Source: a virus
IMG/VR virus record: IMGVR_UViG_3300043419_002586
DNA: 64,000 bases
Direction: 5' to 3' (one strand)
How positions within the stretch are numbered: position 1 is the stretch's first letter; each line of letters begins with the position of its first letter. Made by a program: the position numbers and the translations under genes. The notes below the pieces were generated by a model that searched no databases, was not told the origin of the DNA, and was given only the letters and a program-made list of their open reading frames with translations. Of this stretch, positions 7 to 33,473 are shown one piece after another.

Positions 7-237
7 ATGCGTCAGTGCGAAGTTTGTATGGCTCAAGTACCTATGAATAGTGGTTTGTTTTTCTACTTGCCACAATACACAGAATACGCAAACTGGCAAC
101 AAGATCGTGTTGGCAAAAGAGTTTGTATTTCGTGTTTACCTCCTCAAATTCAAAAACAACTCACAGAAAAAACAGTCAATGCTTCAAAAAATGATTATAT
201 TGACAATCTTTTCGCAGAGATTTTCAAGGCAGACTAA
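7..237 (+). CDS. Small Zn-finger protein
   Basis: CEVC...CISC cysteine pairs; stop overlaps the next start (TAATG). Confidence 0.6.
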   Translation: MRQCEVCMAQVPMNSGLFFYLPQYTEYANWQQDRVGKRVCISCLPPQIQKQLTEKTVNASKNDYIDNLFAEIFKAD

Positions 238-512
238 TGGATTATATCAAATTAGCTCAATTAGTGCAAGAATTAGAGCAGAATGGTTTTGAAGAGGAAG
301 CTACTAATCTTGCTGACGCTATGGAAACAGAAGCTAGTCCGGATGTAATTTTTTCGAATGCTGATATTATTTCAGAAATGGATGACATTATAGGCGGGGT
401 TTTGTATCATTTAAGTATTGATAACAACCTAAAATTCATTGGAAATAATTTATCCCCGCAAAGTCTCAATGATATAAAAAATAGTTTAAATGGGATAATT
501 AAATCAGCTTAA
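237..512 (+). CDS. Hypothetical acidic protein carrying the shared KLAQ..LE..G tag (putative head-internal protein)
   Basis: N-terminus MDYIKLAQLVQELEQNGFEEEA; C-terminus IIKSA. Confidence 0.65.
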   Translation: MDYIKLAQLVQELEQNGFEEEATNLADAMETEASPDVIFSNADIISEMDDIIGGVLYHLSIDNNLKFIGNNLSPQSLNDIKNSLNGIIKSA

Positions 513-739
513 TGCCATTTGTGTTTTTTATAATCTTCTAAACAAGATTCGGGAATATCTTTAATTCTGCAATCTTCGCAATTTGTAGATAGATGCGTAA
601 TATAATCATCCCAAGTTTTTAATTCTTTATTTTCTGCTCGAGAGAATTTGTATCTATTTTTAAGTCCAGGCAAATAAAGTTCATCTTTTAAGAAAAAACT
701 TTGCCCACATTTTTCACAATAACAAGCTACAGTTGGCAT
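509..739 (-). CDS. Small Zn-binding protein (likely start MPTVAC at 739, not 820)
   Basis: CYCEKC...CEDC; ATG at 739 overlaps the upstream gene's TAA (TAATG coupling). Confidence 0.6.
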   Translation of the reverse strand: MPTVACYCEKCGQSFFLKDELYLPGLKNRYKFSRAENKELKTWDDYITHLSTNCEDCRIKDIPESCLEDYKKHKWH

Positions 740-1206
740 TACTTTACAAAATCCGACAATGTTTTTCCAGTGAATAATTGTAACACTGTTAGGAATGCTA
801 TTACTCCACCAATAGTCCACATAATTCTATTAATTGTATTTTTAACATCCCAATAAATTTTCTTCATACTTCTGATATCATCTTTAACTTCACTTATATC
901 AGAACCAAAATCTGAAATTTGAGCTGTGTATTCTAAAGTTGCCTCTTCAATGTCAGCATCTCTTTTAACTTGTGCCGATTGGAAGTTTTCAAATAATTTT
1001 TCTAAAACTGCATAATCTTTAGAAAGTTTCTTAAATTCATCTTCGGATAATATTTTTAAGGACTCTACACGAGATAATATTTCTTTTTGATTTGTAAGAA
1101 TATTAATAAGAGCCATATTGAAATCCAAATATGCCTCTGTTTGTGCTTTATAGACGCTCTTAAGTTGTTCTAATCCGACTTCGTTATCTTGCATTTCATC
1201 CTCCAA
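739..1206 (-). CDS. Coiled-coil protein with a C-terminal transmembrane helix
   Basis: Heptad-like charged helix followed by IMWTIGGVIAFLTVLQLF; GGAGG internal, abuts the upstream gene. Confidence 0.7.
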   Translation of the reverse strand: MEDEMQDNEVGLEQLKSVYKAQTEAYLDFNMALINILTNQKEILSRVESLKILSEDEFKKLSKDYAVLEKLFENFQSAQVKRDADIEEATLEYTAQISDFGSDISEVKDDIRSMKKIYWDVKNTINRIMWTIGGVIAFLTVLQLFTGKTLSDFVK

Positions 1207-1533
1207 TTAAAGAGCAGAGAGAACTTGTCGTAATTTCTTTGAAGATTCTGAGAGTTTTACAATTGTGTCATCTACGGTTTCAAGAATAAATAATTTACTT
1301 TTTGTTCCGTGATTAATATCTTTTTGTTTTAAGCTATATTTTTGATCTCTAAATTGAATAAATGATGCTGATAAATAATTTTTGATATCAAGGCCTTTCA
1401 TATAAAGTTCTTTTGCCTTTTCATTCATTATCAAATTTTTATTATCATCTAAAATATAAGCTGCACAACTAAATGTATCAAGTAGACCACAAATTAAATT
1501 TGATGGGTTGTTGCATTCTATATTTTGTTCCAT
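1207..1533 (-). CDS. Stand-alone PAS-like small protein
   Basis: LLDTFSCAAYILDDNKNLIMNEKAKEL resembles the N-terminal half of a PAS domain. Confidence 0.45.
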   Translation of the reverse strand: MEQNIECNNPSNLICGLLDTFSCAAYILDDNKNLIMNEKAKELYMKGLDIKNYLSASFIQFRDQKYSLKQKDINHGTKSKLFILETVDDTIVKLSESSKKLRQVLSAL

Positions 1534-1544
1534 TTATTAATGCC

Positions 1545-2288
1545 TCAAAGAAAGATTCTATTGTAATATTCTTCGTAAACTTGATAGCTTTCCTCGTCTT
1601 CCATTACGATAAAAATATTTTTTATATTAGATTCTTTCACTGATTGCAAATATGTCTTAATAGCTGCCAATTGAACTCTAGCTGTATCATTTATATCGTG
1701 AGTTCCGCAATCAGCAGGAATAATAAGTACATTTCTTGCTTTTTCGTCATCTGCTAGCAATAAAGCTTTTCTCATAGCAGACTTTAAATCAACCTCATTT
1801 ACAAGTCTACTTTCACCAGACACTGTAGCGTGATAAACTTTTTTTGCCTTTAATTTTGAGTTTTCACCGCCATTTGAAGTGATATAAACTGTTCCCATAT
1901 TAATAGGTTTTTGAAATTTATCAAGTTCGTTTTGTATGACACCACGAGACATTCTATTAAGCAATGGATCATCAATAGTTAGACCAATATTAGTAGGGTA
2001 AACGAGGATATCTGCCTTTACAAGATAAGGATTTTCTATCTTATGTATGCTGATTTTGGTTTTATTGTCAACTATTGGTTCTGGTTCTGGATTTGGTTTT
2101 GGTGTAGATTGTTCTTCTAATTTGTGTTTGAAAGTGCATAAATTAGCATTGCCTTGACAATCATTACCCCAAGATTCTACAACAACATCGAGCTGGATTT
2201 TTGTTAGAAACGAAGATAACCTTGGGTTAGACAATACTTTTACTAAACAATCACCAGAAGATAAATAAACTGGGCATAATTCTGACAT
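1545..2288 (-). CDS. Divergent macrodomain protein with a Cys-rich N-terminal domain
   Basis: ADILVYPTN, GTVYITSNG..LKAKKVYHA, LKSAMRKALLLA..NVLIIPA follow the macro (Appr-1-p) fold pattern; PKPNPEPEP linker. Confidence 0.7.
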   Translation of the reverse strand: MSELCPVYLSSGDCLVKVLSNPRLSSFLTKIQLDVVVESWGNDCQGNANLCTFKHKLEEQSTPKPNPEPEPIVDNKTKISIHKIENPYLVKADILVYPTNIGLTIDDPLLNRMSRGVIQNELDKFQKPINMGTVYITSNGGENSKLKAKKVYHATVSGESRLVNEVDLKSAMRKALLLADDEKARNVLIIPADCGTHDINDTARVQLAAIKTYLQSVKESNIKNIFIVMEDEESYQVYEEYYNRIFL

Positions 2289-2313
2289 ATTGTTTTTATA
2301 CTGTTATAAGCAG

Positions 2314-2346
2314 AAAACCCAGGGGTCTTTAGTCCCTGGGTTTTTT
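2314..2346. terminator. Intrinsic terminator, probably bidirectional
   Basis: AAAACCCAGGG...CCCTGGGTTTT stem with T/A tracts, directly after the stop of the 2345..3103 gene. Confidence 0.85.
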
Positions 2347-3103
2347 ACTTTACGCCATATTTGTTTGCAAATTCTTTATATTTTGGATCTTTTATTATTA
2401 TTTGATAATTATTTGCATCGTGATATTTTAAGTTTTCTAATGCAGACTTAACAGATTGATTTATCATATTTTTCAATTGTGAAGAATAATCTGGAACTGA
2501 ATTAGCTACTTGAAAAAATTCACTTAATTTTGGCTGCCATTGATTTATTGGCATTCTTGTTAATAAATTTGAAACTTGTGAACTAATGGTTCCTGGCAAT
2601 ATGTTATTTACAAATTCTTGTTTACGTTCTGGTGCAACTCCAGGAGCTAGATTTTGAGCAATAAATTTGCCAAAACTTACAAATCCTACATTTGAAAGAT
2701 TCATAAATTCTTGAGCTTTCATACCTCCAGATAATTGCATTTGAGTTAAGTATTTTCTGCCTTTTTCTGTTTTTGAAAGCTCTGCAAACTGAGCTGGAGT
2801 TAAAGTAGGTAAAATACCTGGGCCTTGAGGACCAAATTTTGATTTGTATGGAGAGAATCTGTCATACATACCACCGCCAGCAAATCCTGATCCAGCTGCA
2901 GTATCACTCATATTCTCATACATTGCATCTATAAGAGGATTGCCAGTTCTAGGAGATCCAGTAGATTCATAATCCCCTGGCATAGTTGGAAGGAGGTTTT
3001 GAGATGTTTTAATTAAATTCTCAATCTTATCAGATAAAATATATTTACCATTTTGATCAAGAATAAAAGCTATCTTTGTAAGCTTATTTATATTTAATGC
3101 CAT
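2345..3103 (-). CDS. Hypothetical protein with the shared tag (putative head-internal protein); likely start MALNINK
   Basis: KLTKIAFILDQNGKYILSDKIENLIKTSQ. Confidence 0.7.
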   Translation of the reverse strand: MALNINKLTKIAFILDQNGKYILSDKIENLIKTSQNLLPTMPGDYESTGSPRTGNPLIDAMYENMSDTAAGSGFAGGGMYDRFSPYKSKFGPQGPGILPTLTPAQFAELSKTEKGRKYLTQMQLSGGMKAQEFMNLSNVGFVSFGKFIAQNLAPGVAPERKQEFVNNILPGTISSQVSNLLTRMPINQWQPKLSEFFQVANSVPDYSSQLKNMINQSVKSALENLKYHDANNYQIIIKDPKYKEFANKYGVK

Positions 3104-3761
3104 TTTTGTCCAAATAATCACTTAATGGTGCAATTTGTCTCTCATATTGTTTGAGAATATTTGCCATATTTTGTTGTTTTTCAGCATTTGACATATCTGT
3201 TCTTGATGCAATTTTAGCCATATCAGTAAGAACAGTTTTAATATCCCAATTTGGTACTAACTTTCTCAATTCTTCAGATTGAGTTGTAGCAGAAGTCTTT
3301 ACAAACTTAGAATTTTTATTAGCTGTTGAGGTTCCATCTAATTTTGCTTTCATTGCTTTATATCTTTCAGAATTTTCTGGAACAGTTACATTTTCCAAAT
3401 TTTCAACAGGCTTACCAGTTACAAAATCTGTCATATTCTTAGGTGGATTTTTTTTGAAATCTTCTACGGCTTTTTTCAATTCCGGAGAAAGCATTTCATA
3501 AGCTCCTTGAGAATGCTTTGTGTCGTTATATCCTCTGTTTTTATCAAGTTCTAATGCGTGATAAAAAGCTGATGGACTGTATCTATCAGACCAACCTGGC
3601 AATAAAGCTGTCAAAAATTGCAAATTTTTCTTAATAAAATCTTCATCAAAGAAATCGGAAGACCCACCTTTAGAATCTAATAAAAAATTTAATGCTTCAC
3701 TGGAATTTGGCATATTAATACCTGAACCTTTTCCAGCAGCTATTTTTCTGAACTTACTCAT
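3084..3761 (-). CDS. Hypothetical protein with K-x-A/S motifs (putative head-internal protein)
   Basis: MSKFRKIAA; internal KFVKTSA. Confidence 0.7.
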   Translation of the reverse strand: MSKFRKIAAGKGSGINMPNSSEALNFLLDSKGGSSDFFDEDFIKKNLQFLTALLPGWSDRYSPSAFYHALELDKNRGYNDTKHSQGAYEMLSPELKKAVEDFKKNPPKNMTDFVTGKPVENLENVTVPENSERYKAMKAKLDGTSTANKNSKFVKTSATTQSEELRKLVPNWDIKTVLTDMAKIASRTDMSNAEKQQNMANILKQYERQIAPLSDYLDKNGIKYK

Positions 3762-4648
3762 TATATTCTTCCTCTAGAAATCAACTTAAATATTTTTGCA
3801 GCTTTATCTTCTCTATCCATTCTTTTTGATTCTAATTCATCATAAAACTCAGACATTTCAGGTTGAGAAAATTGCTTATGAAATTTGTGACTTTTAGCTT
3901 TGATAAGAATTTTATTCAATTCTTCTGTCATTAATTTATATGGTATATATTTAGCAGGTACATCCTTAACAGACAGCCAAGTCCATAAAGGATACATATC
4001 AATACCAAAATGATCTATTTCCAATTCACTTGGATAATATGTAGAAGGATCAATTTTTTCCTTGATAAGATGTTTTCCTAATAAAGAATTTGAATATATG
4101 TCTGGGTATTGTTTATCTAGAACTTCTGCAAGCTCTGGATACAAACTAACTATTTTTGTTATCCAATCCAATATTGATCCATCATACCAACCCGCTTTAA
4201 TTTTATCCTTTGGCTCTTTCATAAGTTTTGCAAGATAGCTTTGCAGATAATTTGTATCCACTGATGAATGTGTTCCAAATCTAGGATCAGAAGAAAATTG
4301 ATCAACATCTGTACCAGCATAAGGATTTTTTCTTGTAGGTGACAATGAATATCCTATTTTTGGACGATTTGAAATTTCTGAGAGAAATGAACTGTCCACA
4401 TCATCAAAACTCAAATTACCAGAAGATGTCCAAGGACTTACAGAAACATTGGTAAATCCAGCGGCCAAGAATTTGTTTTTCCAATCATTAGCGTTTCTGT
4501 TATCCATCATCGTAATAAATCTATCTACAGTGCCTGACGAATCAGTAGCATTTATTAAGAAAGATTGACTACGAGCAGCCTGCTTAACATATGAATTGTT
4601 TTCATCTGTTATGCTGACAGCTAATTTAATAATTTCTTGAACATCCAT
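3761..4648 (-). CDS. Hypothetical protein with K-x-A motifs (putative head-internal protein)
   Basis: MDVQEIIKLA...SYVKQAA; first gene of a 3-gene unit that ends at the 2314 terminator. Confidence 0.7.
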   Translation of the reverse strand: MDVQEIIKLAVSITDENNSYVKQAARSQSFLINATDSSGTVDRFITMMDNRNANDWKNKFLAAGFTNVSVSPWTSSGNLSFDDVDSSFLSEISNRPKIGYSLSPTRKNPYAGTDVDQFSSDPRFGTHSSVDTNYLQSYLAKLMKEPKDKIKAGWYDGSILDWITKIVSLYPELAEVLDKQYPDIYSNSLLGKHLIKEKIDPSTYYPSELEIDHFGIDMYPLWTWLSVKDVPAKYIPYKLMTEELNKILIKAKSHKFHKQFSQPEMSEFYDELESKRMDREDKAAKIFKLISRGRI

Positions 4649-4656
4649 AATAATAA

Positions 4657-4683: not shown

Positions 4684-6036
4684 TCATTCAACAACAAAAG
4701 CATAAGGGTTTGAAACACAATCTTTACTAATTAAAACTTTTTTTGGCTCTGGATGATTTATTCCAAGCACTTCGAAAGCAGCTCCTGAAACAGATGCTTT
4801 CACTATAGAATTTAAAGCTCTTGTGCCTGTTCCTGACTTTATTGCTTTTTCAACAACCTCGTCATAATAATTTTCATCAAATTCAAGCTTTACATTAGAC
4901 TCTGCAAACATAATTTGATTTTTAATAATAGGAGAATCTTCAAGCTCCAGAAGACAATAAAGCATTTGTTCCTTTGAAAGAGGAACTAAAGGAACAATAG
5001 ATTGAATTCTTCCAACAAATTCAGTGGACAATCCATATTCAATCAAACTCTCTGCTAAAATTTCGTGAGATGCTTGGTTGTAAATTTCGTAATTCTTGAT
5101 TTGCGCTTGATAGTCTGCACTTTTTGTTTTTCTAAATCCAATAGTGCCTTCAGTAAGACCAAGTTTTTTTGCAACAATTTTCTCTAATCCATTAAAAGCA
5201 CCGCCAAAACAAAACAAAATACTTGACGTATCTACAACAACAGGAGGTGAGCCTTGTTCGCCAAGAGCAGAAGAACTTACTTTTACTTTTTTACCTTCTA
5301 TGAGTTTGAGTAATGTGCTTTGTGTGGAGTAATGAAAACTTTCAAGTCTTGTAGCAACACTCATATTAGATGCTAATTTATCGATTTCATCAATGAAAAC
5401 AACACCCTTTTCTGCTAATCCAGGCTCTCCATTTGATTTTACTAAAAGATCTGTAATTACTGAATCAGCATCGGAACCTTGAAATCCTGTAGGTGAAAAA
5501 GATGTTGCGTCTCCAGAAACATAAGGCACATCAAGGTATTTAGATATGGTATTGACAATTAATGTCTTTCCGCTACCTGATGGACCTAAGAATAAAATAT
5601 TTTGCTTGTCATTAATTTTGTGATGAACAATATTTCTCATATGTTCAAAAACTGCAATACTGATTCTTTTCTTAGCATTTTCTTGACCAACAACTTTATG
5701 GTTCAAATTTTCATAAAGATCTTGAGGGGATACTTTTTTGAATGTAGATAATTTTCTTTCAAATAAAAACTTTTTAGATAATGGAGCAACTTCAGCTAAT
5801 TTTTCTTTCAAGCTTATGATTGGTGCTTCATCTTCTGCATTAATTATCAAAGACATAATATTTTGGTGAATTTGTAATTGACCAAACTTGTTTCCAGTTT
5901 TATAACTCTTAAAACAATAATCACAAAGATAAATTTTTGATATCCTTTGTTCAAATATTTCTAACTCACCTAATACATCTTTGGTGGCAGGTCTATCACA
6001 AAAATTACAGGTGTGCACTAATGTCTTTTTATTCAT
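4684..6036 (-). CDS. clpX: ClpX-like AAA+ unfoldase
   Basis: N-terminal CNFC..CDYC Zn finger, Walker A GPSGSGKT, Walker B VFIDEIDK, GGAFNGL, IGF loop (TIGFR), EFVGRI, GTGTRAL. Confidence 0.92.
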   Translation of the reverse strand: MNKKTLVHTCNFCDRPATKDVLGELEIFEQRISKIYLCDYCFKSYKTGNKFGQLQIHQNIMSLIINAEDEAPIISLKEKLAEVAPLSKKFLFERKLSTFKKVSPQDLYENLNHKVVGQENAKKRISIAVFEHMRNIVHHKINDKQNILFLGPSGSGKTLIVNTISKYLDVPYVSGDATSFSPTGFQGSDADSVITDLLVKSNGEPGLAEKGVVFIDEIDKLASNMSVATRLESFHYSTQSTLLKLIEGKKVKVSSSALGEQGSPPVVVDTSSILFCFGGAFNGLEKIVAKKLGLTEGTIGFRKTKSADYQAQIKNYEIYNQASHEILAESLIEYGLSTEFVGRIQSIVPLVPLSKEQMLYCLLELEDSPIIKNQIMFAESNVKLEFDENYYDEVVEKAIKSGTGTRALNSIVKASVSGAAFEVLGINHPEPKKVLISKDCVSNPYAFVVE

Positions 6037-6062
6037 AAAAATCCCTCTGAAATATTATACAG
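6037..6062 (-). promoter_or_regulatory. Sigma70-like -10 (gTATAAT) and RBS (GAGGG) for clpX
   Basis: Minus strand reads CTGTATAATATTTCAGAGGGATTTTTATG. Confidence 0.55.
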
Positions 6063-6119
6063 ATAGGTAGGATATATGCCATTACGCAAATAATATTATA
6101 TTTAATTTGGAGGAAAAAA

Positions 6120-6353
6120 ATGGCAACTGTTGATAATAATTCACAAAATCGAGGCAATGGAAAGTGGAAAATTCAAACCTACAATCCATCAGCACTTATA
6201 GGACCAATTGAGGGTGTTCTTATAGTAAATAAAGATTTCTATACCATTTACAAAGATGAAAAGATGGTTATATGTTTATTCAATGTTCCAAGTCAAAATG
6301 TCGCTTTTGCGTATAATGAAGTACACGTACAAAACTTAGATATAAGTAAGTAA
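6120..6353 (+). CDS. Hypothetical protein
   Basis: GGAGG RBS upstream; 77 aa. Confidence 0.65.
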   Translation: MATVDNNSQNRGNGKWKIQTYNPSALIGPIEGVLIVNKDFYTIYKDEKMVICLFNVPSQNVAFAYNEVHVQNLDISK

Positions 6354-6354
6354 A

Positions 6355-6618
6355 ATGAGCCAAGAACCAGAAAAGCAAAATCCAACTTATGAAATGAAGA
6401 TTATCAAGATTGATGGCGAAAATGCTATCAGGAGACTTCTTGCTCTTCAGAAAAATTACAATCCTTCTAATATAGAAGTTGATAGAAAATTGAAAACATT
6501 ATTCAAATATTTGGAAGAAAGCTATGGTTCAATTGCTAACGTGAGATTATATTCAAAAGGAATGAGTTTGCAGCCAATTATATCAGAAGCTGTTTATCAT
6601 TTATTTGGCAAAAAATAA
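6355..6618 (+). CDS. Hypothetical protein
   Basis: Tightly packed ORF, 87 aa. Confidence 0.6.
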   Translation: MSQEPEKQNPTYEMKIIKIDGENAIRRLLALQKNYNPSNIEVDRKLKTLFKYLEESYGSIANVRLYSKGMSLQPIISEAVYHLFGKK

Positions 6619-6624
6619 TGAGAG

Positions 6625-7224
6625 TTGAATACATTAATTGAAATTTCCAATAAAATAACTCAATGCTCTCAAAATGATCGTTTGGAAATAATTATCAGTT
6701 TGAGAGCTTTTTTATTTGACAACCCTGTTCATTATTGGATTGATTTTACATATTCAAGTAATTACGAGCAAGACTTAATAAATTGTCAAATATCAAATCC
6801 AAATCTTTTTAAGAAAATCAATGAAGATAATATAAAAAGGATTGGAATAAAACCAATTGATTTATTTTTATTACCCAAAAATAAAAAACTATTTTTAATA
6901 AATCTTATTGAAGAAATTTTTGAAGATTTAGAAATTAAGATAGTCTACGATAAAATACGTCTCAACCCATTTTATGAAGATGAACTTTTTGATTTCATCA
7001 TAGATCATAAGGAACATTTTTCAAAAAATACTATTGATACTTACAAGAAAAGATATAAAGATGTTAAGTACCTATTAGAAGAAGCAAATATAGAAAATCA
7101 AATTTATGAAACTTGTTTTACCGTTGCTAGAAAAAATAAAATTATAGATTATTGGGTCAACATTTGGGGTGTATCTACAAATTACAAAGATTCAACTTTG
7201 ATCGAACACATTATTATAAAATGA
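6625..7224 (+). CDS. Hypothetical protein (very AT-rich)
   Basis: 199-aa ORF with TTG start, packed in the operon. Confidence 0.6.
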   Translation: MNTLIEISNKITQCSQNDRLEIIISLRAFLFDNPVHYWIDFTYSSNYEQDLINCQISNPNLFKKINEDNIKRIGIKPIDLFLLPKNKKLFLINLIEEIFEDLEIKIVYDKIRLNPFYEDELFDFIIDHKEHFSKNTIDTYKKRYKDVKYLLEEANIENQIYETCFTVARKNKIIDYWVNIWGVSTNYKDSTLIEHIIIK

Positions 7225-7796
7225 AAGCTTACTTGACATTTGCTAGAAGAAAAGAAGATGATGTTCATATGTTAGGTATAGAAAATCCATCTAACATTAA
7301 TGATATTTTATTCATTGGGCTTAAATCTGGGCAACCTATTTTACCAATAATTCAAAATAATAAAATTATAGCCTTTTATATTTTAGATGTTGAAGGTAAT
7401 TTATATCAAATAGTTGGAGAAACAGATTATTTATTTAATTTGAATGAGCTGACAGATTTATCCACAATAAATCTACAAAAATACAATCTAATAAAATATT
7501 TTGTCTCGCAAGTTTTTCAATGTCTGTCCATTCAAGAAGCAAAATATAATTCTGAAATATTTGAACTTTTAGAAGAAAAAATTTTTTATAACTTGCTGCA
7601 TATAGAAATAGATTTATATAAGATTAAACCAGCAATAATAAAAGAAATTAAAAAATCAGAGCTAACAAATACAATTAAAGATAGATTATTAATGTGTCTG
7701 ACTCAAGCTAAAAATCCTAATAATAGAATATTGAAAAAGAAAATTGATGTAGACTTATCAGGGTATTCTATTTATATCAATTCCTTTACTCAATAA
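7221..7796 (+). CDS. Hypothetical protein (likely start MKAYL at 7221)
   Basis: ATGA overlap with the upstream stop. Confidence 0.6.
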   Translation: MKAYLTFARRKEDDVHMLGIENPSNINDILFIGLKSGQPILPIIQNNKIIAFYILDVEGNLYQIVGETDYLFNLNELTDLSTINLQKYNLIKYFVSQVFQCLSIQEAKYNSEIFELLEEKIFYNLLHIEIDLYKIKPAIIKEIKKSELTNTIKDRLLMCLTQAKNPNNRILKKKIDVDLSGYSIYINSFTQ

Positions 7797-8255
7797 TCTA
7801 AGAACTTCAGCCTCATTAAATTTTATAGCAGTTTCATTGCATTTAGGACAGCAATTTTCACTCTTTTGCCAAACTCTTTTGCCATCTTTAATGCCTGGAA
7901 TTGATAGAATAGGTAATGTTTCAATAACACAATGACATCTATCGTGTAATGGTGGTAGTTGAATTAATGCTGTTGGATCATTTTCAATTTTCTGCACATT
8001 GTCTTGTAAATCTTCAAGAGTAAAATTATTATCACCAGAAGGATCATCTATTGTAATATCATCAAGGTTTGGTGTATCAGATTCATCCTCTAGTTGATCA
8101 TTAATGTCTTCATTCAAGTCATCAGCTGGTAATTCTAAAGGAGTTTCAGCAGTTTCAGTCTCATCTACATCTTCATCAGCAAATAAGTTGTACTTACGAT
8201 CTCCATAAATAGGAAGACCAAACATATTATATTTCTTAGCGAGTCGATACCACAT
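7758..8255 (-). CDS. Acidic protein with a MuF/SPP1 gp7-like Zn motif (putative minor head protein)
   Basis: PPLHDRCHC and WQKSENCCPKC; N-terminal WYRLA tag. Confidence 0.6.
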   Translation of the reverse strand: MWYRLAKKYNMFGLPIYGDRKYNLFADEDVDETETAETPLELPADDLNEDINDQLEDESDTPNLDDITIDDPSGDNNFTLEDLQDNVQKIENDPTALIQLPPLHDRCHCVIETLPILSIPGIKDGKRVWQKSENCCPKCNETAIKFNEAEVLRLLSKGIDINRIP

Positions 8256-8290
8256 ATTGGTTAATTCCTAATTTACTTTATAAAACACCT

Positions 8291-9280
8291 ATGACAAATG
8301 AATTTGATCCTAAAAAGATTATTGATTTTGATAAAGATTATTATGAGATTTTAGGATTGCAAAAACTTGATTTTCCTATTGGTAAGTCAAGAGCAGATGT
8401 TATAAAAACTTCTGAAATCCTTGAAAAAGCATTCCGTGTTAAAGCAAGAAAGTGCCATCCTGATTTTGGTGGATCTAATGAAGCATTTTTAGATATTGTC
8501 AGAGCAAGAAGAATTTTGGAAGATCCGCTGTTGAGAAAAATCTATGATCAAGGATTTTTTGAAGAATTTACCATTGTAAATGATAATGATAGCTTTCAAG
8601 TAGATTGGGGCAAAATTGGAACTTATCGTAAAGGGACGCCAGAGGATACTATTGGATTTAGTTTATTTTTGCAACTTTGTGATGATAAGAAAAACTTGGG
8701 ATTAATACCAGCATTTTTTCCAACAACTAACGAGCACAATTATGAGTGGGATTTTGTATTAGAAGAGCAAGCAAAGACTAAATTAGTAATTTCTATTGTA
8801 AATGATGAAAATGAAGTACTACGTTTAACATCAAATGAAGATGTAGAAAAAGCATTGCCATTTAAAATTTACATATGTATCCCTAAAGCTAACCTCGTTT
8901 TTGTAAGAGAAGAAAATTCAATTTTATCCCCTGATGGAAAAACTCTAATTAATGGGAATATTACAAAAGCAGGATATAACGATTTAGATTTACTTGAAAC
9001 AACAAACTTAGACACAGCAAATGAATACGTTAAAAATAAATTAAAAACAGATTTATTTAAATTCATAAACGGAGAACTAAAACCAACAGTTAAAGCTAAC
9101 CAAGCAAAGATGATGGATAGTGATGAAATGAAAAAATTTGACAAAGATAAACTTTCTGAAATATTAAATATTAGAAAATTTATTTTTGACAATAATGATC
9201 AAGCTGCTGAATTTTTAGAAAATATAGACAATAAAAGACCAATTTTTAAAAAATCCGCAAAGCCTGAATTACCTTTTTAG
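8291..9280 (+). CDS. J-domain protein (class C)
   Basis: DYYEILGL...KAFRVKARKCHPDFGG..F..I..A..IL.DP..RKIYD; C-terminal domain not recognised. Confidence 0.85.
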   Translation: MTNEFDPKKIIDFDKDYYEILGLQKLDFPIGKSRADVIKTSEILEKAFRVKARKCHPDFGGSNEAFLDIVRARRILEDPLLRKIYDQGFFEEFTIVNDNDSFQVDWGKIGTYRKGTPEDTIGFSLFLQLCDDKKNLGLIPAFFPTTNEHNYEWDFVLEEQAKTKLVISIVNDENEVLRLTSNEDVEKALPFKIYICIPKANLVFVREENSILSPDGKTLINGNITKAGYNDLDLLETTNLDTANEYVKNKLKTDLFKFINGELKPTVKANQAKMMDSDEMKKFDKDKLSEILNIRKFIFDNNDQAAEFLENIDNKRPIFKKSAKPELPF

Positions 9281-9355
9281 TAGGGCTTATAAAGCGCAAA
9301 AAAGAAAACAATACTGTGATTACAAAATCAACAAAAATGCGAGGAGACCAATAAT

Positions 9356-10723
9356 TTGGCAAAGCATATTTACATCATCGACACTTGTGTCTTACTTCAC
9401 GATCCCCTTGCTCTTTACAAATTCGGTGACAATGATATTTATATCCCATTAGCTGTCATCGATGATATGGACGACATCAAGACAAGAAAAGAAAATGTTG
9501 GATGGTCAGCCAGACAAGTATTCAGAAATTTAGAAAATTATTCACTTCAAGATCTTCTTAAAGGCGTAAAAATAAACGAACTTGGTGGAAGATTATTTGT
9601 CTACAATACTGAGTCACCTCTTCAAAAAAACGAAAGACCAAATATTATCAAAGTTCATTCCGATAATGCTATTATCGAATGTTGCTTGGCATTAAAATCT
9701 GCAAATCCTAGAAAGAAAGTAGCTATTATCACCAAGGATACTGGACTTCGTATTCGTGCTATTACCTGGGGTTGTGCAGCTGAAAATTACAGAGCTGATC
9801 AACTTAGTGATGAAGTTTATACAGGCATCAGAAAGTTCGAAATTAGTAATGACTTAGACTGGGCTTTGCTTTGGTCTGATTTCGAAATTGAATTAAAGAA
9901 ATTATCAGAAGAAACCATTGATAAACTTGGAGATGTTTTCCCCAATGAATTTGTTTTATTTTCTTATGGAGACAAAATCTGTCCAACTATTTATAGAAGA
10001 GGCATATTTAAAGTTCTTAAAGAAAAATCAAATACAAAAGAAGTCAAGGGATATTCTGGTGTTCAAGGAAAAAATTTAGAGCAAAAATGTGCTTTAGAAA
10101 TTCTTGCTGATCTTACTATTCCTCTTGTAACTCTTTCTGGACCAGCAGGTACAGGTAAATCATTCTTGGCTCTTGCAGCTGCTTTGCAAATGATCAATGA
10201 AGGTATCTATGACAAGATTGTTGTTATGAAGCCTCTTATTGCTGTAGGTGGCAAAGACATTGGCGCTCTGCCTGGTGATAAGTTTGACAAGATTTCTGCT
10301 TGGTTAGGTCCTATCAAAGACAATATTGACCAAATCTTAGGTTCTAAATCACTTTCTGCAAATAATATGTTTGAAGAAATGGTTAGAGATGGAATCATTG
10401 AAGTAGAAGCAATGGCTTTTATTCAAGGTAGATCCATCCCTAGATCTATCATTATTCTTGATGAGGCTGAAAACATTTCACCTAGAGAAGCAAGGATGGT
10501 AGTAGAAAGATGCGGAAAAGACAGTAAAGTCATCCTTCTTGGCGATCTATCACAGGTCGAAAATCCTTACCTTGATGCTAAATCAAACGGTCTTTCACAC
10601 GCTATATCTGGTGGAAAGAAAAGTGATTTAGTCGCTTCCGTTACATTAAGTAAAGTCGAAAGATCTGAATTGGCTGCTGTTGCTAGTGAAATTTTCAATA
10701 GACCAGAAGCTAGAAGAAATTAG
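9356..10723 (+). CDS. phoH: PIN-PhoH (PhoH2/YlaK-type) ATPase
   Basis: PIN: IIDTCVLLHDP, SDNAII, ITKDTGLRIRA; ATPase: GPAGTGKS, GALPG, IQGRSI, ILDEAEN, GDLSQ, ERSELA; TTG start with GAGGAG RBS. Confidence 0.92.
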   Translation: MAKHIYIIDTCVLLHDPLALYKFGDNDIYIPLAVIDDMDDIKTRKENVGWSARQVFRNLENYSLQDLLKGVKINELGGRLFVYNTESPLQKNERPNIIKVHSDNAIIECCLALKSANPRKKVAIITKDTGLRIRAITWGCAAENYRADQLSDEVYTGIRKFEISNDLDWALLWSDFEIELKKLSEETIDKLGDVFPNEFVLFSYGDKICPTIYRRGIFKVLKEKSNTKEVKGYSGVQGKNLEQKCALEILADLTIPLVTLSGPAGTGKSFLALAAALQMINEGIYDKIVVMKPLIAVGGKDIGALPGDKFDKISAWLGPIKDNIDQILGSKSLSANNMFEEMVRDGIIEVEAMAFIQGRSIPRSIIILDEAENISPREARMVVERCGKDSKVILLGDLSQVENPYLDAKSNGLSHAISGGKKSDLVASVTLSKVERSELAAVASEIFNRPEARRN

Positions 10724-10737
10724 TATTGGTAGTATAA

Positions 10738-13700
10738 ATGTCCCACGCTTTCATTTGGTCTGAAGTAAACGCTGATAATTCACAGTCTGAAATCTCAAGA
10801 GAAATTTCAAGTGCTGGATTTGGTACTAACATATCCGGCACTTGGAACAAAAAATTATTTAGATTGAAATGGATCAATACAAATGTCGATGATATACGAC
10901 TTTGGATTGATAATGAGTTTGCGGACATTTATACCAACCAACATTATCCCGCAATAAAAAATACTGACAATATCAAACTTCTTGAAGATTTAGGTTTTGA
11001 TATTAGATTCACATTATTTGATTCTTTTATCATAAACAAGCTTAATGCTGATGTAGCAACTTCAACCAACTTATCATCTGCAACAATTGGCGGTACGAGT
11101 GTTATTTTTGCCCCAGCTTATGTAGACGGAGTAAAACTAGACAACAATAAAGTAGTTCTAGTAAAATCCCAGACATCTGCTTTTCAAAATGGGCTTTACA
11201 GAGTTTCATCACAAGTTGGTAGTGGAACTATTGGAGCCATTGTTGCAGAGGATATACTAACAGCAGGTAAAATTGCTGCTGTTGGAAACTCTTCATTTTA
11301 TTTATATAGTCCATATCTCAATCCATTCGAAACCGCTGCATCTGGATCGACATCATTCATTTGGGTTGATAGAACAAATAGATATGCACTTAATTCTGTT
11401 CAATGTGCAACAATTTCAAATTTACAATCATCTGGTTCTGGTTTAACTAATTCATCAATTGTTTTGGACAATCATACTTTATCCATCAATGATAGAGTTT
11501 TAGTCAAAGATCAAACTACAAAAGCTCAAAACGGTATATATTACGTTTCAAGCCTCACTAAACCAAATGCATCATCTTTAATTAATCCATATACAAGTAC
11601 AGATTCTGCTGATGACTTTTGGAAGACAGCAATAAATTATATCAATGCAAATCTTCCAGTTAACGTTCAATTCATTAACGCTGGTGTGGCAAAAAGTGGC
11701 GGATATTTCAGATTTTATTCTGCAATTGGTCTTACTGGAGGTACAGCTTCAACTTCTTCTATGAAATGGTCAGATGCTACATATAATTATGGACACACAA
11801 ATGTAGATTATTATTATGAGATTACTTCTGGAAGTGCAATTGGATTTAGTTATGATTTTGGCTCAAATACTGGAACATTAACAAGCACTCCAAGAACGAT
11901 TACTAACTATTCAGGAGTAGCTACCACTCTTTCAATTTCCAACAGAATTTTAGTAAAGCACTACAATGAAAATTTCAGTGGCATTTATACTGTGTCAAAT
12001 GTAGGTTTTGGAAGCACTGGACTTTGGGTAAGAGCTACAGATTATGATACACCCGCTGAAATAAATCAAACTATAGTATATGCCTCTAATTCCAAAAATA
12101 CATTAGGGGGCAATATTTGGTATTTAGGAAAATCTACAACCTATAATTCATTTTTCAAATTAAATTTTGATGGGATTACAATACAAGAAAGATTTTATCC
12201 TTATACTTATGAGCCCGTTTCCAACTTGATTGTTGATAATCAGGCTGACTTATCTGATGTTAATGAAGTTAACTTTGTAAACTCAGGTATCGCAATTTCA
12301 CAAAGAGTTCTTGTTGCTGGTCAAACCGCTTATCCTTCTCAAAACGGAATATACAATGTAGCTTCCGTTTGTAAAACTGTTTATGGATTAGAATTCAAAA
12401 CAGATTATTCAGTACTAAGAGGAAGTATAGCAACTATTTCCAATGGTACAACAGGATCAGGTACTACTTATTTCTTGTATGCTCCTGGAAGTTCTACAGC
12501 TTCAGGATCTGTCGGTGTAACTTGGGTAAATATTACAAACCAAAATAATTTATTTGTAACTGCTTCTACAACTGTTGATAAATTTAATTCGACATATTTA
12601 TCTCCAACTGATTTTGATGTACCTGTAGCAATTGGTACATCAGTGTTAGTAAATACAAGTAATGATCTAGTCAATGGTGTTTATTCAGTATCTGCAATTG
12701 GTGCTTCAACAAAGCAAGTATTCAAATATGATAACAATTTATCATCTTGGACTCAAAATATATTTTCAAATATTCTAACAAGTAATGGAAATGGAACATA
12801 TGCAGTATCACCAAATTTGAAAAAAGAAATTTCAGGTGTATTACAAGTAGCTTCTATTGCTTCTACTCATTATGGCGAAATTTTTGTTCCTGAAGTTTTG
12901 TTTCCATCTTTTCAAAATTATGAAAATTATTTTAGTTCTGAAGGAAAAGGAAGTTCAATATTACAAGAGCTTGATTTTGATTGGTACGAACAAGATTATC
13001 AAAAATACAATGTAAAAGCTATTTTGTTTGTAAATTCAACTTCACAAATTCCAACAACTTCTGGAACTGCAATATCGAGCTTAATAAGAAGTACTTCTGG
13101 AACAGGAAGAACTATATTACAAAGCAACGATAGTATACTTGTTTTTGTTGGATCCGGTTATTCTTCATCAAGCGTTTCAAATGGAGTATATAGACCTTCG
13201 TTTACAGGAATTGGTAGTGTTTATTTTGCGCCTCACGAAGACTTTTATTATAATACTAAATTTGAATTAGGCTCTGATCAAAAATCATTAGCTTCTCCAT
13301 ATGAGAGACCTACATTAGTAAAAATTGATTATGGCTATATGGGTGCTGGAACAACTTTTTCTTATGATAAAGTTTATATGCAAGCTGAAGTTGGAATAAG
13401 AGAAGGAACTTTTGGCAGTGATTATGCTACCACAGACTTAGATAAATATTTACATACTGGATCTGAAGTTTATTATCAAGATTCAGAAGTAAGATTGAAT
13501 GCTAATCAATTGGATTTGTCAAAATTTCCAAGATTAGCGCCAATTCAACATATTTTAGCTGCAGATACAACTTTAGACACAATAAGCCAAGACATATTGA
13601 TTGTTAGAAGAAATGGTAATCAACTTTTAAGCAGCATTTCAGGAGATTTAGTTCAATATCCTTACGAAATTGATGATAGAGTTTTTTACTATTCAACTAA

Positions 13701-17104: not shown

Positions 17105-17683
17105 ATGAAATACGTAAAATTAGCACAAATGCCTCCAATGGATCCTCTCGGTGGAATGGGAATGCCAACTACACCTATGGCGATGCCTGCTCCTGCTGAA
17201 CCAGCTTCAAGCCAAAAGCAAATTAAAGTACCTTTGGAAAATTTAGGATTAATTTTAGCTGATGCTGAAATTGAAAAAAAATTATTAGAACAACTTGAAG
17301 ATAATGAGCAAGGTATTGCTAATGATGTTTGGATTCAGTATGGTGGCAAGGAAGACGGTGGGGTTGACCAATCAAAACGTGGTGAAAGAAAAGATTCTGA
17401 AGAAGCTACAGAAGAAGAAATAAAATCCACCGACAAAACAAGATGGAAAAGATTACCAGAGGGTCAAAATTTATTAGACTTAGAAATTAGTCTTGATGAT
17501 ATGGCAAATGCAGTAAAATTTTTATCATTCGGATTTGCTAAAAACAAAAGCAAAGAACAAGGTGGAGCCCCTGGCGGAGGCGGAATGCCTGGTATGGCTT
17601 CAAGAAAACTCGATAATATGGTCAAATTAGCACAAAATTTGGATTTATTAGGTATGTATAGTGTAGCGGATCGCATTCTATAG
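17105..17683 (+). CDS. Hypothetical protein with the tag at both ends (likely start MKYVKLAQ at 17105)
   Basis: MKYVKLAQ-MPPMDP...; C-terminal MVKLAQNLDLLGMYSVADRIL. Confidence 0.75.
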   Translation: MKYVKLAQMPPMDPLGGMGMPTTPMAMPAPAEPASSQKQIKVPLENLGLILADAEIEKKLLEQLEDNEQGIANDVWIQYGGKEDGGVDQSKRGERKDSEEATEEEIKSTDKTRWKRLPEGQNLLDLEISLDDMANAVKFLSFGFAKNKSKEQGGAPGGGGMPGMASRKLDNMVKLAQNLDLLGMYSVADRIL

Positions 17684-22886: not shown

Positions 22887-23708
22887 ATGAACAACGCAAC
22901 TATAAAATCCTGGATAAACAGAGCTTACGTATTTGAAGAAAGTCACATCAATGCTTTCGTAGCATCTTCAACAGGTGGCACTGGTGGAACTGGTGGAACC
23001 GGAGGGACAGGTGGTACTGGAGGCACAGGAGGCACTGGTTCTGGAACAGGTTCAACCGTACTTTATTTTTCTGTTCCTAATTCATCATCTTATCCAGGTA
23101 CAGGATTTACCATTTTTGACTTAAGTGGCTATGGCAATAATGGATACCTTTACAATGGCACTAATTATGTAAATAGTGGCAATGCTGATTATTTATTTTT
23201 TGACGGTACTAACAATTATGTAGGTATTAATACAACTGTTACTTCAAATACAAATGATGTTAACATTACCACTTGGGTTAATTCTTCTATTGTTTCACAG
23301 TCAGGTCAGATGATTGTTTATGTAGGAAGTGAACAAAACCTTAATGGGTATGGAATTTCTATAAATAAAGAATATGTAACATCTGGCAACGTATATATAA
23401 GATATGGAAATGTAAGATGGTACAACTCTGGAATTGCATTATCATCAAATAGTTGGCATCATTTATCTCTCAATATTAAAAGTGACACATCAAATGACTT
23501 ATATGTAAATGGTGTATTAAGATATTCTGGCCCAGTTTCTGCAATTTACACTCCTACATTGCATACAGAAATTGGAAGAAGTGATTTTACTACTTATGCT
23601 TATCCAAGATATCTTAATGGAAAAGTTTCTGAAGTAATAATTTCAAGCGGAATCTTAACTACTAGTCAAATTTTGTCACATTACAACGCAACTAAAAATA
23701 ATTACTAA
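22887..23708 (+). CDS. LamG/concanavalin-A-like lectin domain virion protein with a (TGG)n linker
   Basis: SYPGTG..IFDLSGYGNNGYL, FFDGTNNYV, ITTWVN, WHHL, LYVNG, EIG, LNGKVSEV, QILSHYNA. Confidence 0.85.
   Translation: MNNATIKSWINRAYVFEESHINAFVASSTGGTGGTGGTGGTGGTGGTGGTGSGTGSTVLYFSVPNSSSYPGTGFTIFDLSGYGNNGYLYNGTNYVNSGNADYLFFDGTNNYVGINTTVTSNTNDVNITTWVNSSIVSQSGQMIVYVGSEQNLNGYGISINKEYVTSGNVYIRYGNVRWYNSGIALSSNSWHHLSLNIKSDTSNDLYVNGVLRYSGPVSAIYTPTLHTEIGRSDFTTYAYPRYLNGKVSEVIISSGILTTSQILSHYNATKNNY
22971..23039 (+). repeat. Thr-Gly-Gly tripeptide repeat (7-8 copies) with varied codons
   Basis: acaggtggc actggtgga actggtgga accggaggg acaggtggt actggaggc acaggaggc actggt. Confidence 0.9.
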
Positions 23709-24990: not shown

Positions 24991-24992
24991 AA

Positions 24993-26102: not shown

Positions 26103-26107
26103 TTAGA

Positions 26108-28676: not shown

Positions 28677-28691
28677 AAGAATAATTGTACA

Positions 28692-29045: not shown

Positions 29046-29154
29046 AGCACACCTCCAATGCGCAATAAGCAATTTATTATTCCTTGCAAAGCATACCCTA
29101 ACTTTTATTAAGAAACCTTAATAGGACTTATTCTTGTCTATAGTGTATACTATT

Positions 29155-29196
29155 ATAGTCCACTGGCGGATAAATTGATGCTAGTGGACTATTTTT
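29155..29196 (+). terminator. 13-bp hairpin with a U-tract (terminator or attenuator)
   Basis: ATAGTCCACTGGC-N12-GCTAGTGGACTAT-TTTT (one G-U pair). Confidence 0.65.
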
Positions 29197-29213
29197 GTGT
29201 AAGGAGGTTAATT

Positions 29214-29285
29214 ATGAAAATTTTTGAACAAATTGAAGAAATGATGAATCAAGTTATTTCAGCATTATTTAGAGTAGAATTGTAA
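29214..29285 (+). CDS. Unannotated 23-aa peptide MKIFEQIEEMMNQVISALFRVEL
   Basis: Perfect TAAGGAGGT Shine-Dalgarno just upstream of the ATG; below the ORF-track cut-off. Confidence 0.55.
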   Translation: MKIFEQIEEMMNQVISALFRVEL

Positions 29286-29313
29286 GGCAACTTATAATCT
29301 ACAATGGCGTAGA

Positions 29314-31080: not shown

Positions 31081-31102
31081 TCAATCAGTATACCATTAAG
31101 CA

Positions 31103-31140
31103 AAACAACCATTTTGTTGATGTCAACAAAATGGTTGTTT
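31103..31140. repeat. Perfect 18-bp inverted repeat with a 2-nt spacer (terminator or operator)
   Basis: AAACAACCATTTTGTTGA-TG-TCAACAAAATGGTTGTTT. Confidence 0.85.
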
Positions 31141-31155
31141 GTAGAAAGAACAATC

Positions 31156-31590
31156 TTAACGATGATTCATAGCATTAAATTTATTAACAGCAATTTGAAT
31201 TTGCTTTGGCTTCTTACCTACAAATGTTTCTAAAGTAGAAAGAACAAGCACATGAATCTTATCTACATCTTCTTCAGAAAGTTCAATGCCCTTTTGAGCA
31301 CAGCCTAAACGAATAAATCTCACGAATTGATCTACTGCATCATCTTGTGAAAATTCTCCATCTTGAATCTTCTTAAGGCCTTCAATCCAAATATCTAAAA
31401 TGCCATCTGCTTTTGCACCAAGTTTGCTACGAAGAACAAGCTTGATAACTTCAAGAGTTTGTAAAGCTGCAGCACCCTCGGACTTCGATTTTGCTAAGAA
31501 AAAGAATACCACGCTGCCAAGAATGAAACAAACTACATAAACAATAATTTCATTCTGTGTTGAATTTAGAAAATTAGTAATTAATTCCAT
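31156..31590 (-). CDS. Holin-like membrane protein (LL-H-like), likely start MELIT
   Basis: Single N-terminal TM (IIVYVVCFILGSVVFFFLA); C-terminal AQKGIELSEEDVDKI resembles LL-H-type holins. Confidence 0.45.
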   Translation of the reverse strand: MELITNFLNSTQNEIIVYVVCFILGSVVFFFLAKSKSEGAAALQTLEVIKLVLRSKLGAKADGILDIWIEGLKKIQDGEFSQDDAVDQFVRFIRLGCAQKGIELSEEDVDKIHVLVLSTLETFVGKKPKQIQIAVNKFNAMNHR

Positions 31591-31592
31591 AA

Positions 31593-31811
31593 TTAGCAAT
31601 CCTTTGCAATAATTGAATCATCTTCATCAGATGCATTTGGGTCTAAATCCATATCTGTAGTCAAAGGAATAACTAATTCATCTTTGATTTGTGCAGTAAC
31701 AGCATCGTCTTTCTTTTCGTCTGCCCAAACAAGATTATCAGCCATTACTTCTTCGCCTTCAGCATTAGTAAACTTTTCAATCTTGCCTGTAGCTCTTTTT
31801 ACCATACTCAT
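31593..31811 (-). CDS. Small acidic hypothetical protein
   Basis: 72 aa, overlaps the dnaJ stop; AGGAGG within the dnaJ 3' end. Confidence 0.6.
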
Positions 31812-32791
31812 AACATTTGCCTCCTTTTCCTAGATTCGACATATGATTTTAAAAATTGTGATTCTTCATCAGAAATTTCTTTAGGAATTTTATACATTAT
31901 TTTGAGGTGTAAGTCAGAATATGTATCATTTGATGTTGGAATCCCCTTACTCTTAACTATATGTACGTAGCCATTCTTTAAACTATTACTAAATTTAAAG
32001 TTTAATTTATTTCCATTTACGTGATTGTATTTAAATTCAGGATTTATAAGTGCAGCAATCGGATCAATTTCAAACTCGTGAACAAGATTTAAATTAGCAT
32101 CAATTTCAAATTTTTCTCTTTTTCTGGTAATTACTTCAACAATAAGTGGCCCAGCCGCTTGATAAATATCTCCGTGATTTCCTCTGCCTTGGATCATAGA
32201 CGATCTGTAAACGTGTCCTTTGTTTATTGTCAGATCAAAATTTTCAAACATTTTTACATGACCAGAGCCGTTACAATAATTGCAAAATGCATCAAACTTT
32301 TCACCACGGCCATAACAACTTCCACAAGGACCAGCATAATTTCGAACGTGCATAAAACCCAAATCTTGAACTATATAATGTTCTCCTGATCCCATACAAG
32401 ACATACAAAGACTTTTATTTCCACTACCACCAACTCCTGAACAAGCTCCACAAGGCACTAAACGCTCATAATTAAGAGTTTTTACGACATTTTTGTAAAC
32501 CTCTTCTAATTCAAGTTCAATAGTAACTGTTATTGGAGTATTAAGATTTTTCCTAAATGGATTTCTAGTGGTATTTCTAAATGGATTTGCAGGTGGTTCA
32601 AAATGATGTTGCGGAGGAGGGGGATTTAAGATATCTTCATATGCTTGAGATATTTCTTTAAATTTTTCTTCTGATCCAGCCTCTTTATTTACATCAGGAT
32701 GGTATTGCTTGGCTAATTTTCTATAGGCCTTTTTTGCATCATCTACTGAAGCATTTTGTGGCAAACCTAAAACATCATATGGATTTGGCAT
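31808..32791 (-). CDS. dnaJ: DnaJ (class A-like)
   Basis: J-domain with HPD, four CxxCxGxG motifs, C-terminal peptide-binding region; G/F region replaced by a Pro-rich linker. Confidence 0.93.
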
Positions 32792-32798
32792 AAAGTCA

Positions 32799-33473
32799 TT
32801 ATACTAATTTGGATAACATATTGGTAATTTTATTAGAAGGACATAAAGTATTTTCACCAACGCCAATATCAGCGTGTTGTCCAGTTACACCAATTACTGT
32901 TCCTATAACAAGATTGTCAGTTCCAATTGCCATACCGCCAGATGAACCTTCAAGAATATCTGCATCTACAAAAATTACATCAGTCCAGGCAGGTAAATTT
33001 ATATCATTAATATTTTGATGAATATTTGAAACTCTACCAACAGTGGCTGTGTCGTGAAAACCCTCTGGAGAACCAATCACTGCTACAATATCACCAACTT
33101 CTATTGTATCACTGTTGGCAAACTGTAATGATGGGATATTTGATGGTATTCTTTCTGCTCTTATAGCTCCAGAGTCTATCGTGGGATCAGAAATTAAAAA
33201 TGTAGCTGGAATAAAATTTTTATTATCAAATGAAATAAGAATTTCTGTCAAAGTTTCATCTGCTGGGACAACGTGTCCAGCAGTTATGATAATATTATTG
33301 CCAATATGAAATCCACTACCTGACCAATTTTTCTTTCCAGATCTCACATAAATAGAACAAGAAGCTTGAAGTCCCAATTGTATTGTTTTTTTAATTGGAT
33401 CTTCAAGCTTTTCTGCGCTTTGGCTAGTCTTAATTAGACTATCCAAATAATTAACATCTAATTTAAAATTCAT
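32799..33473 (-). CDS. Trypsin-like (HtrA/DegP-type, no PDZ) serine protease
   Basis: [39 protein letters not shown]; N-terminal LIKTSQ. Confidence 0.9.

Follow-up and report, generated by a model that had tools for sequence, protein, structure and literature searches.

Two related terminal tags mark unrelated proteins of jumbo phages related to Bacillus phage G and may serve head assembly

In bacteriophage T4, the internal proteins IPI-III and the enzyme Alt share a capsid-targeting sequence of 10 residues, a short N-terminal peptide common to unrelated proteins, by which they enter the prohead as cargo, later to be ejected along with the DNA. An ADP-ribosyltransferase-type enzyme is among the carriers, a prohead protease belongs to the same system, and the targeting sequence is removed after use by gp21-type cleavage at L/I-x-E. 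In phiKZ-type phages propeptides of head and ejection proteins are cut at S/A/G-x-E. Encapsulins, with their minimal HK97-fold shell protein, take up unrelated cargo by a terminal and mostly C-terminal peptide of a Gly-Ser-Leu type consensus, held on a flexible Pro/Gly/Ala-rich linker. Short terminal peptides on flexible linkers, partly basic and hydrophobic, are also found as N-terminal ClpX degrons and SspB-type tethers. Polyvalent proteins with MuF or portal anchors combine ART-PolyVal and LPD domains, GNAT and peptidases on one giant MuF-anchored polypeptide, and are thought to be delivered from the head (PMC5512222). Here we describe two related terminal tags on otherwise unrelated proteins encoded in a 64,000-nucleotide stretch of the IMG/VR virus record IMGVR_UViG_3300043419_002586 (the window) and in its relatives.

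The window is part of the genome of an uncultured jumbo phage of ~360 kb, a relative of Bacillus phage G. Close relatives in IMG/VR are G001 (169 kb), G002, G003 and G004; since the 169 kb of G001 are 47% complete, the full genome would be roughly 360 kb. More distant relatives include the near-complete G005 (358 kb) and G007 (300 kb). The relatives G005-G009 were retrieved via ClpX, and their ClpX content is biased by that selection. Roughly a tenth of the genes in this clade encode proteins that have one of the two tags and are otherwise unrelated. The first is an N-terminal leader of 6-8 residues that reads M-W-Y-[KR]-x-A, M-x-Y-x-K-L-A-Q or M-S-K-F-[RL]-K-I-A-A. The second is a helix-Gly-helix hairpin of ~30 residues, the first and last turns of which repeat the phi-[KR]-phi-[AS]-Q element of the leader (phi, hydrophobic residue). 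The tags lie at the extreme N-end or, less often, at the C-end, usually with a flexible linker between tag and protein body. The sequence after the leaders is rich in Pro, Gly and Ser, and disorder-type residues are more frequent at positions 8-47 of the M-W-Y proteins than in the same stretch of other proteins (p 1.5e-4). Paralogy of the carriers was rejected, as blastp similarity is absent outside the tag, and Pfam and PHROGs assign no family to the tagged window proteins other than the protease at 32799-33473. The leaders do not resemble Sec or Tat signal peptides: what follows them is polar, Pro/Gly-rich or acidic, with no hydrophobic core.

Compared with the T4 system, the clade shows the same use of a short N-terminal peptide on unrelated proteins, an ADP-ribosyltransferase-type enzyme among the carriers and a prohead protease, and a similar role in loading prohead cargo is predicted here from sequence. 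The tags have no sequence relation to the T4 peptide, however, and the T4-type protease and capsid protein (PF03420, PF07068) were not found in a search in which the control genomes were silent too; the clade protease is instead like gp19 of phage G, and the capsid protein is a 282-residue HK97-fold protein. Uniformly, the tags close with [AS]-Q or A-A immediately before flexible sequence, and no family has a Glu at the tag boundary, so that neither gp21-type removal at L/I-x-E nor phiKZ-type cleavage at S/A/G-x-E is seen. Also unlike T4, there is a second, folded version of 30 residues that can stand at the C-end, and the carriers are far more numerous (about 10% of genes). The encapsulin layout of terminal peptide, flexible linker, unrelated cargo and HK97-fold shell recurs here with a different consensus. 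The domain types of polyvalent proteins recur as well, on separate small proteins that are each tagged.

The leader is enriched at N-termini. A loose five-residue form of the motif occurs 46 times in the window against 34.8 ± 5.7 in 1000 residue shuffles (p 0.036). Six window genes, starting at 237, 3761, 4648, 8255, 17105 and 31811, carry it in their first seven residues, against 0.74 expected (p 0.001). Within protein bodies its frequency is close to chance, and single internal matches (F-V-K-T-S-A, I-R-R-V-A) are indistinguishable from chance. The first-pass annotation of the window had described a short motif recurring near N-termini or domain boundaries and had proposed a general K-x-A/S code. 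The enrichment bears out the former for N-termini; with internal matches at chance level, a general code is not supported. Enrichment near N-termini, proposed there as a check, is found in the relatives also. In G005 the loose pattern falls in the first seven residues of 31-33 of 385 genes (7.3 expected, p 1e-11 to 1e-12), with 7 against 7.0 expected for the reversed motif, and in G007 of 20-21 of 254 genes (4.7 expected). The loose pattern overstates the signal, and the count that settles the matter is that of the specific W-Y leader: W-Y at positions 2-3 is found 14 times in G005 (0.19 expected), nine times in G007 (0.17 expected) and five times in G001 (0.08 expected). The M-W-Y leaders have the consensus M-W-Y-[RK]-x-A-[QIAV], and their conservation ends after residue 7.

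The hairpin has a consensus of ~30-35 residues, phi-x-K-phi-A-x-x-L-D-x-x-G-x-Y-x-x-[AS]-D-x-phi-x-x-phi-phi-K-[TI]-[AS]-Q, and is present three times in the window. In the 91-residue protein at 237..512 (+), the leader M-D-Y-I-K-L-A-Q continues into a hairpin at residues 1-30 (nucleotides 237-326; hidden Markov model (HMM) E 1.4e-11), and the C-end reads I-I-K-S-A (nucleotides 495-509). The tag is kept in the orthologues of G001, G005 and G004, and the C-terminal phi-phi-K-[ST]-[AS] in those of G001 and G005. The 252-residue protein at 2345..3103 (-) has an N-terminal hairpin at residues 6-41 (nucleotides 2981-3088; HMM E 5e-15) that ends in L-I-K-T-S-Q and is followed by a disordered linker of ~65 residues and a helical domain. 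The 192-residue protein at 17105..17683 (+) is tagged at both ends: M-K-Y-V-K-L-A-Q (nucleotides 17105-17128), a Pro/Met/Gly-rich linker, a globular core, a Gly-rich linker and a C-terminal hairpin (nucleotides 17603-17680; HMM E 8e-12). Its orthologues, down to 46% identity, keep x-phi-x-[KR]-[LI]-[AS]-Q with a Pro/Gly linker as well as the C-terminal hairpin. The profile matches each of the three copies with E 1e-11 to 1e-15, and the remainders of the three carriers are mutually unrelated by blastp. The longer helix that the first-pass annotation saw in three dissimilar proteins is thus a real module of ~30 residues, and all 13 strings that it quoted (three long, ten short) are where it placed them.

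An AlphaFold2 model of the 2345..3103 protein shows a helix at residues 2-17, a turn and a helix at 21-36, with a predicted local distance difference test (pLDDT) of about 70-80; residues 35-101 are below 50, and residues 103-249 are mostly helical at about 50-90. The predicted hairpin with its 65 disordered residues, the Pro/Gly runs and the disorder-rich residues 8-47 support a layout of tag, linker and domain. In a 13-sequence alignment of this family, six of the seven invariant columns are in the tag (D16, G19, D25, K32, S34, Q35) and the seventh is P103, which makes the tag the most conserved part of the protein. A BFVD fold search with the model gave no match.

Among 1.84 billion representative proteins, the hairpin profile has 142 matches at E<=1e-3. 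About 14 of these are ordinary tetratricopeptide repeat (TPR) arrays with weak scores. The other ~128 are anonymous metagenomic proteins. In most of them the match covers the C-end or lies within residues 1-35, and some have 2-3 hairpins spaced 100-200 residues apart. A TPR is a helix-turn-helix of about 34 residues, repeated in tandem. The phage copies stand alone, at termini, and Pfam calls no TPR in them; in G005 and G007 together, 24 hairpins are N-terminal, 4 C-terminal and 1 internal. Pfam and PHROG tallies found no recurrent partner domain among 74 metagenomic hairpin proteins. An ESM Atlas search with the hairpin gave noise-level scores, tblastn of the hairpin proteins against cultured phages found nothing relevant, and related-locus searches with the hairpin alignment or with distant members returned nothing useful.

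Synonymous codons vary within the tags, from which it follows that the constraint acts on the protein; a nucleotide-level signal is thereby ruled out. Orthologues retain tags but change their wording, as in M-K-Y-V-K-L-A-Q against M-S-K-F-L-K-I-A-A, and in some families tags are gained or lost, which is the behaviour of short linear signals. One family, at 6355-6618 (+) in the window, has no leader in the window, G001, G002 or G005, starts with M-W-Y-Q-A-L in G004 and with M-W-I-K-L-A-K in G007, and so presents a clear gain or loss of the tag.

The order of the head module in G001 is TerL, nine genes, the portal, a 1383-residue protein, an acidic 555-residue protein, a 216-residue protein and the major capsid protein. 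The capsid protein has the HK97 fold (282 residues; NF042927, 4e-56) and is 49% identical to gp27 of phage G. Of the nine genes that separate TerL from the portal, at least four have a leader or hairpin; counting two looser N-terminal variants brings the number to six. The portal has Y-K-L-A-S in a C-terminal extension after a Pro/Gly linker. The 1383-residue protein starts M-Y-K-V-A-K-G-G ... I-I-K-T-A-S, conserved in five genomes. Its residues 89-246 (phrog_18299) are 39% identical (E 1e-37) to gp19 of phage G, which is listed as the head maturation protease (PMC12484599). This homology places the prohead protease, which the first-pass annotation had suggested looking for, outside the window and makes it a tagged protein itself. 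PDB and NCBIfam did not recognise it, and its identity rests on the PHROG and on phage G gp19; an AlphaFold2 model of its N-terminus reached pLDDT 40 with a shallow alignment. The gene occupies 4821-8972 (-) of locus L031, which is 137821-141972 of G001, with the protease domain in the first ~250 residues and a remainder of ~1100 residues without an assigned family. An insert in the protease domain has several Cys and one His and looks zinc-ribbon-like by eye. The portal gene, at 9098-11470 (-) of the same locus (142098-144470 of G001), codes for a C-terminal domain of DUF559/Vsr-like endonuclease type (phrog_503; NF007294, E 7e-5), ahead of which lies a long Pro/Gly/Ala linker.

Recognisable domains are few among the 52 tagged proteins of G005 and G007: ART-PolyVal (2e-11), PcfJ, FHA, DnaJ and a weak LPD26 (E 0.0018). 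A tagged GNAT protein matches the polyvalent-protein family phrog_10691. Polyvalent-protein domains of this kind belong to head-packaged, injected effectors, of which T4 Alt is the prototype (Iyer et al. 2017, PMC5512222). Gyrase, the UvsW-like helicase, DnaK, PhoH, TerL and the giant fibre proteins showed no tag.

We tentatively propose, at slightly less than an even chance, that the tags are docking tags for head assembly, comparable to the head targeting of T4. Each tag would bind a receptor common to them all within the prohead, for which the inner face of the capsid, the portal region and the scaffold are candidates. In this way assembly would enclose host-takeover enzymes, internal proteins and the prohead protease, and all would later be ejected with the DNA. 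We favour this proposal because of the terminal position and linker, the tags on protease and portal, the carriers in the head module, the effector types and the T4 precedent. Tags on the prohead-protease fusion, the portal extension and the TerL-portal genes fit a role in head cargo, and ART-PolyVal, GNAT and LPD26 carriers fit cargo delivered by the virion. If the tags load heads, they would tell which proteins a whole clade of giant freshwater phages, and phage G, carry as cargo, and dozens of anonymous genes would likely encode ejected host-takeover proteins. The leader of 6-8 residues and the portable hairpin of 30 would then offer easy means of loading large capsids with foreign proteins.

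Several observations weigh against head docking. The major capsid protein has no tag; of the capsid and portal proteins, in which the first-pass annotation had proposed to test for the motif, the portal carries it. Many tagged genes lie in tandem arrays distant from the head module, and the tagged J-domain and FHA proteins are not obvious head cargo. In Tunturi_5, a distant, ClpX-less phage with the same capsid family, the loose pattern is found in 19 of 331 genes against 7.9 expected, partly in signal peptides, so that the pattern has a generic N-terminal bias of ~2.4-fold; a recurring leader was not found in Tunturi_5. A terminal peptide with a flexible linker is equally the layout of degrons and adaptor tethers, and a phage ClpX gene lies beside the tagged genes.

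This leads to the main alternative, in which the tags would be recognised by, or tether proteins to, the phage's own ClpX, working with ClpP of phage or host origin. They would be either N-terminal degrons that time when a set of phage proteins is removed, or SspB-like tethers to the ClpX zinc domain. The ClpX gene at 4684..6036 (-) is genuine, with an N-terminal Cys4 zinc module, an intact IGF loop and matches to PDB ClpX 6vfs (E 6e-53) and Pfam AAA_2; its pore-1 loop reads G-F-Q-G in place of G-Y-V-G. It is the first gene of a run, all in one orientation, that continues with the tagged genes at 4648-2345. A ClpP gene occurs in G005 (206392-206925, beside a hairpin-tagged gene), in G007 and in phage G. 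Both ClpX and ClpP have been detected in phage G particle proteomics. The leaders would also fit N-motif-1, which in the work of Flynn et al. 2003 is said to be roughly phi-phi-basic-phi near the N-end. Both tag-bearing lineages, the clade and phage G, have ClpX, and the ClpX-less Tunturi_5 lacks a recurring leader; this comparison covers three lineages only, and G005-G009 were themselves found through ClpX. At the loci of this clade, M-W-Y starts are found in 12 of 12 and hairpins in 11 of 12, whereas neither occurs at 67 unrelated phage ClpX loci (~1.2 Mb); ClpX is therefore not generally associated with the tags. N-terminal classes of ClpX degrons exist (PMC12723719), but a folded hairpin of 30 residues would be atypical as a degron, and degradation signals on the prohead protease, the portal and other structural head proteins would make little sense. 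We consider ClpX recognition unlikely, though it deserves serious weight; should phage ClpXP read the tags after all, they would form a phage-encoded degron system broader than any before it.

A general docking or oligomerisation role of the hairpin and its half-motif, by which they would glue proteins to each other or to some hub inside infected cells (a replication or takeover body, for example) without encapsidation, is in our estimate quite unlikely. Since the hairpin starts and ends with the same element, a lone leader could pair with a helix in trans, and the metagenomic proteins with 2-3 hairpins would be multivalent. The hairpin resembles a single TPR unit, its profile weakly matches true TPR arrays, and the tagged-gene arrays distant from the head genes would be accommodated. 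Oligomerisation would leave the strict terminal position without a reason, though, there is no known candidate for the hub, and the tags on protease, portal and head-module genes point to the head. We regard as similarly improbable a proteome-wide address system read by the phage ClpX, as an unfoldase threading tagged cargo into the prohead or as ClpXP clearing a tenth of the proteome on a timer, or one in which mutual pairing of the hairpins draws dozens of proteins together in an inner body.

Cleavage at K-x-A/S or K-x-[AS]-Q, by which a phage protease, possibly the trypsin-like enzyme of the window itself, would mature the cargo, as the first-pass annotation had proposed, is very improbable: the uniform tag ends ahead of flexible sequence, the invariant K32, S34 and Q35 of the 2345-3103 family, the element in the N-terminal regions of both the HtrA-like and the prohead protease, and the removal of the T4 targeting sequence after use would suit it, but no residue preference is visible behind the tag, a cut at a C-terminal hairpin would release nothing since the protein stops there, internal matches are at chance rate, the T4-type gp21 and gp23 were not found, and the S1 enzyme is of the HtrA/DegP family, which prefers small aliphatic residues before the cut and not Gln.

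Phage G, which is cultured, has its own version of the leader, M-K-R-L-[IMF]-K-K-[AS], typically M-K-R-L-I-K-K-[AS]. Based on our own gene calls on the 497-kb genome, the pattern falls in the first ten residues of 49 of 668 proteins (17.8 expected, p 4e-10), against 17 for the reversed control (16.8 expected). A basic phi-K-K-[AS] leader opens some two dozen unrelated proteins. As in the clade, several of the carriers are in the head module (gp10, gp13, gp17, gp20 and gp38). The wording differs from that of the clade, and phage G has no M-W-Y leader and no hairpin. Neither the clade leaders nor the phage G leader were found described in the papers searched. The phage G version makes the head-docking proposal testable in culture. 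Several phage G proteins (163172-163849, 178671-179204 and 245994-246467; loci L167 and L171) have the M-K-R-L leader and, within a few residues, [YF]-H-[GT]-T-S, a sequence similar to the first motif of diphtheria-toxin-type (H-Y-E) ADP-ribosyltransferases, the sole support being a non-significant PDB hit (E 0.2), and blastp gives no link to the ART-PolyVal protein of the clade.

The remaining tagged genes of the window are on the minus strand. The 225-residue protein at 3084..3761 has the leader M-S-K-F-R-K-I-A-A (nucleotides 3735-3761) followed by a Gly/Ser-rich linker; leader and Pro/Ser/Gly-rich linker are present in G001 and G002, and the leader is absent in G005 and G004. The 295-residue protein at 3761..4648 has an N-terminal module of ~28 residues (nucleotides 4565-4648) between I-I-K-L-A and Y-V-K-Q-A-A, brackets that are conserved in G002 and read I-I-L-Q-A ... 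F-T-K-I-S-Q in G004. An acidic 165-residue protein at 7758..8255 combines the leader M-W-Y-R-L-A-K (nucleotides 8235-8255) with a C-terminal zinc-ribbon-like motif; M-W-Y-[KR] is kept in G001, G002, G005 and G004 and lost in G007. The 72-residue protein at 31593..31811 starts M-S-M-V-K-R-A-T, possibly a weak leader, an uncertain case that is conserved in all relatives and lies outside the M-W-Y and K-L-A-Q consensus. The enzyme at 32799..33473 is an HtrA/DegP-like S1C serine protease without PDZ (Pfam Trypsin_2, 4.5e-17; PDB DegP, 6e-13). L-I-K-T-S-Q is present in its N-terminal extension (nucleotides 33420-33437), ahead of the trypsin-like domain as first reported, and equals the closing half of the hairpin tag. 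Its orthologues have L-V-K-T-S-Q (G005), L-I-K-T-S-Q (G004) and F-L-R-E-A-Q (G007) with diverging flanks, so that phi-phi-[KR]-x-[AS]-Q is retained down to 53% identity. The earlier view of a tag on unrelated proteins that include a protease holds in this respect, with the reservation that the prohead protease is a different protein from the trypsin-like enzyme. Since the latter is HtrA-like, the idea that it acts in a Gln-specific, 3C/Spl-like way was rejected. Elsewhere in the clade, M-W-Y genes form tandem arrays of 4-5 consecutive genes, at 225735-230558 in G005 (together with two hairpin genes) and at 270234-274327 in G007, and one M-W-Y gene of G007 encodes a J-domain protein.

The window as a whole has a G+C content of 29-37%, is densely coding and gives no DNA-level match to cultured phages. 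It encodes gyrase B and A, DnaK, two DnaJ-like proteins, PhoH/PIN, a UvsW-like helicase and the true ClpX, together with a peptidase cassette of S8, S26 and S1 types and a 29-kb run of giant fibre-like genes. Among the small structural-looking genes after the gyrase genes, the one at 22887-23708 (+) encodes a 273-residue protein with seven Gly-Gly-Thr repeats near its N-end. In G004, eight tandem paralogues of ~230 residues lie at 54190-59781 (locus L021) between large fibre-like genes; seven of the eight start with M-G-[ILV] and one with M-P-L.

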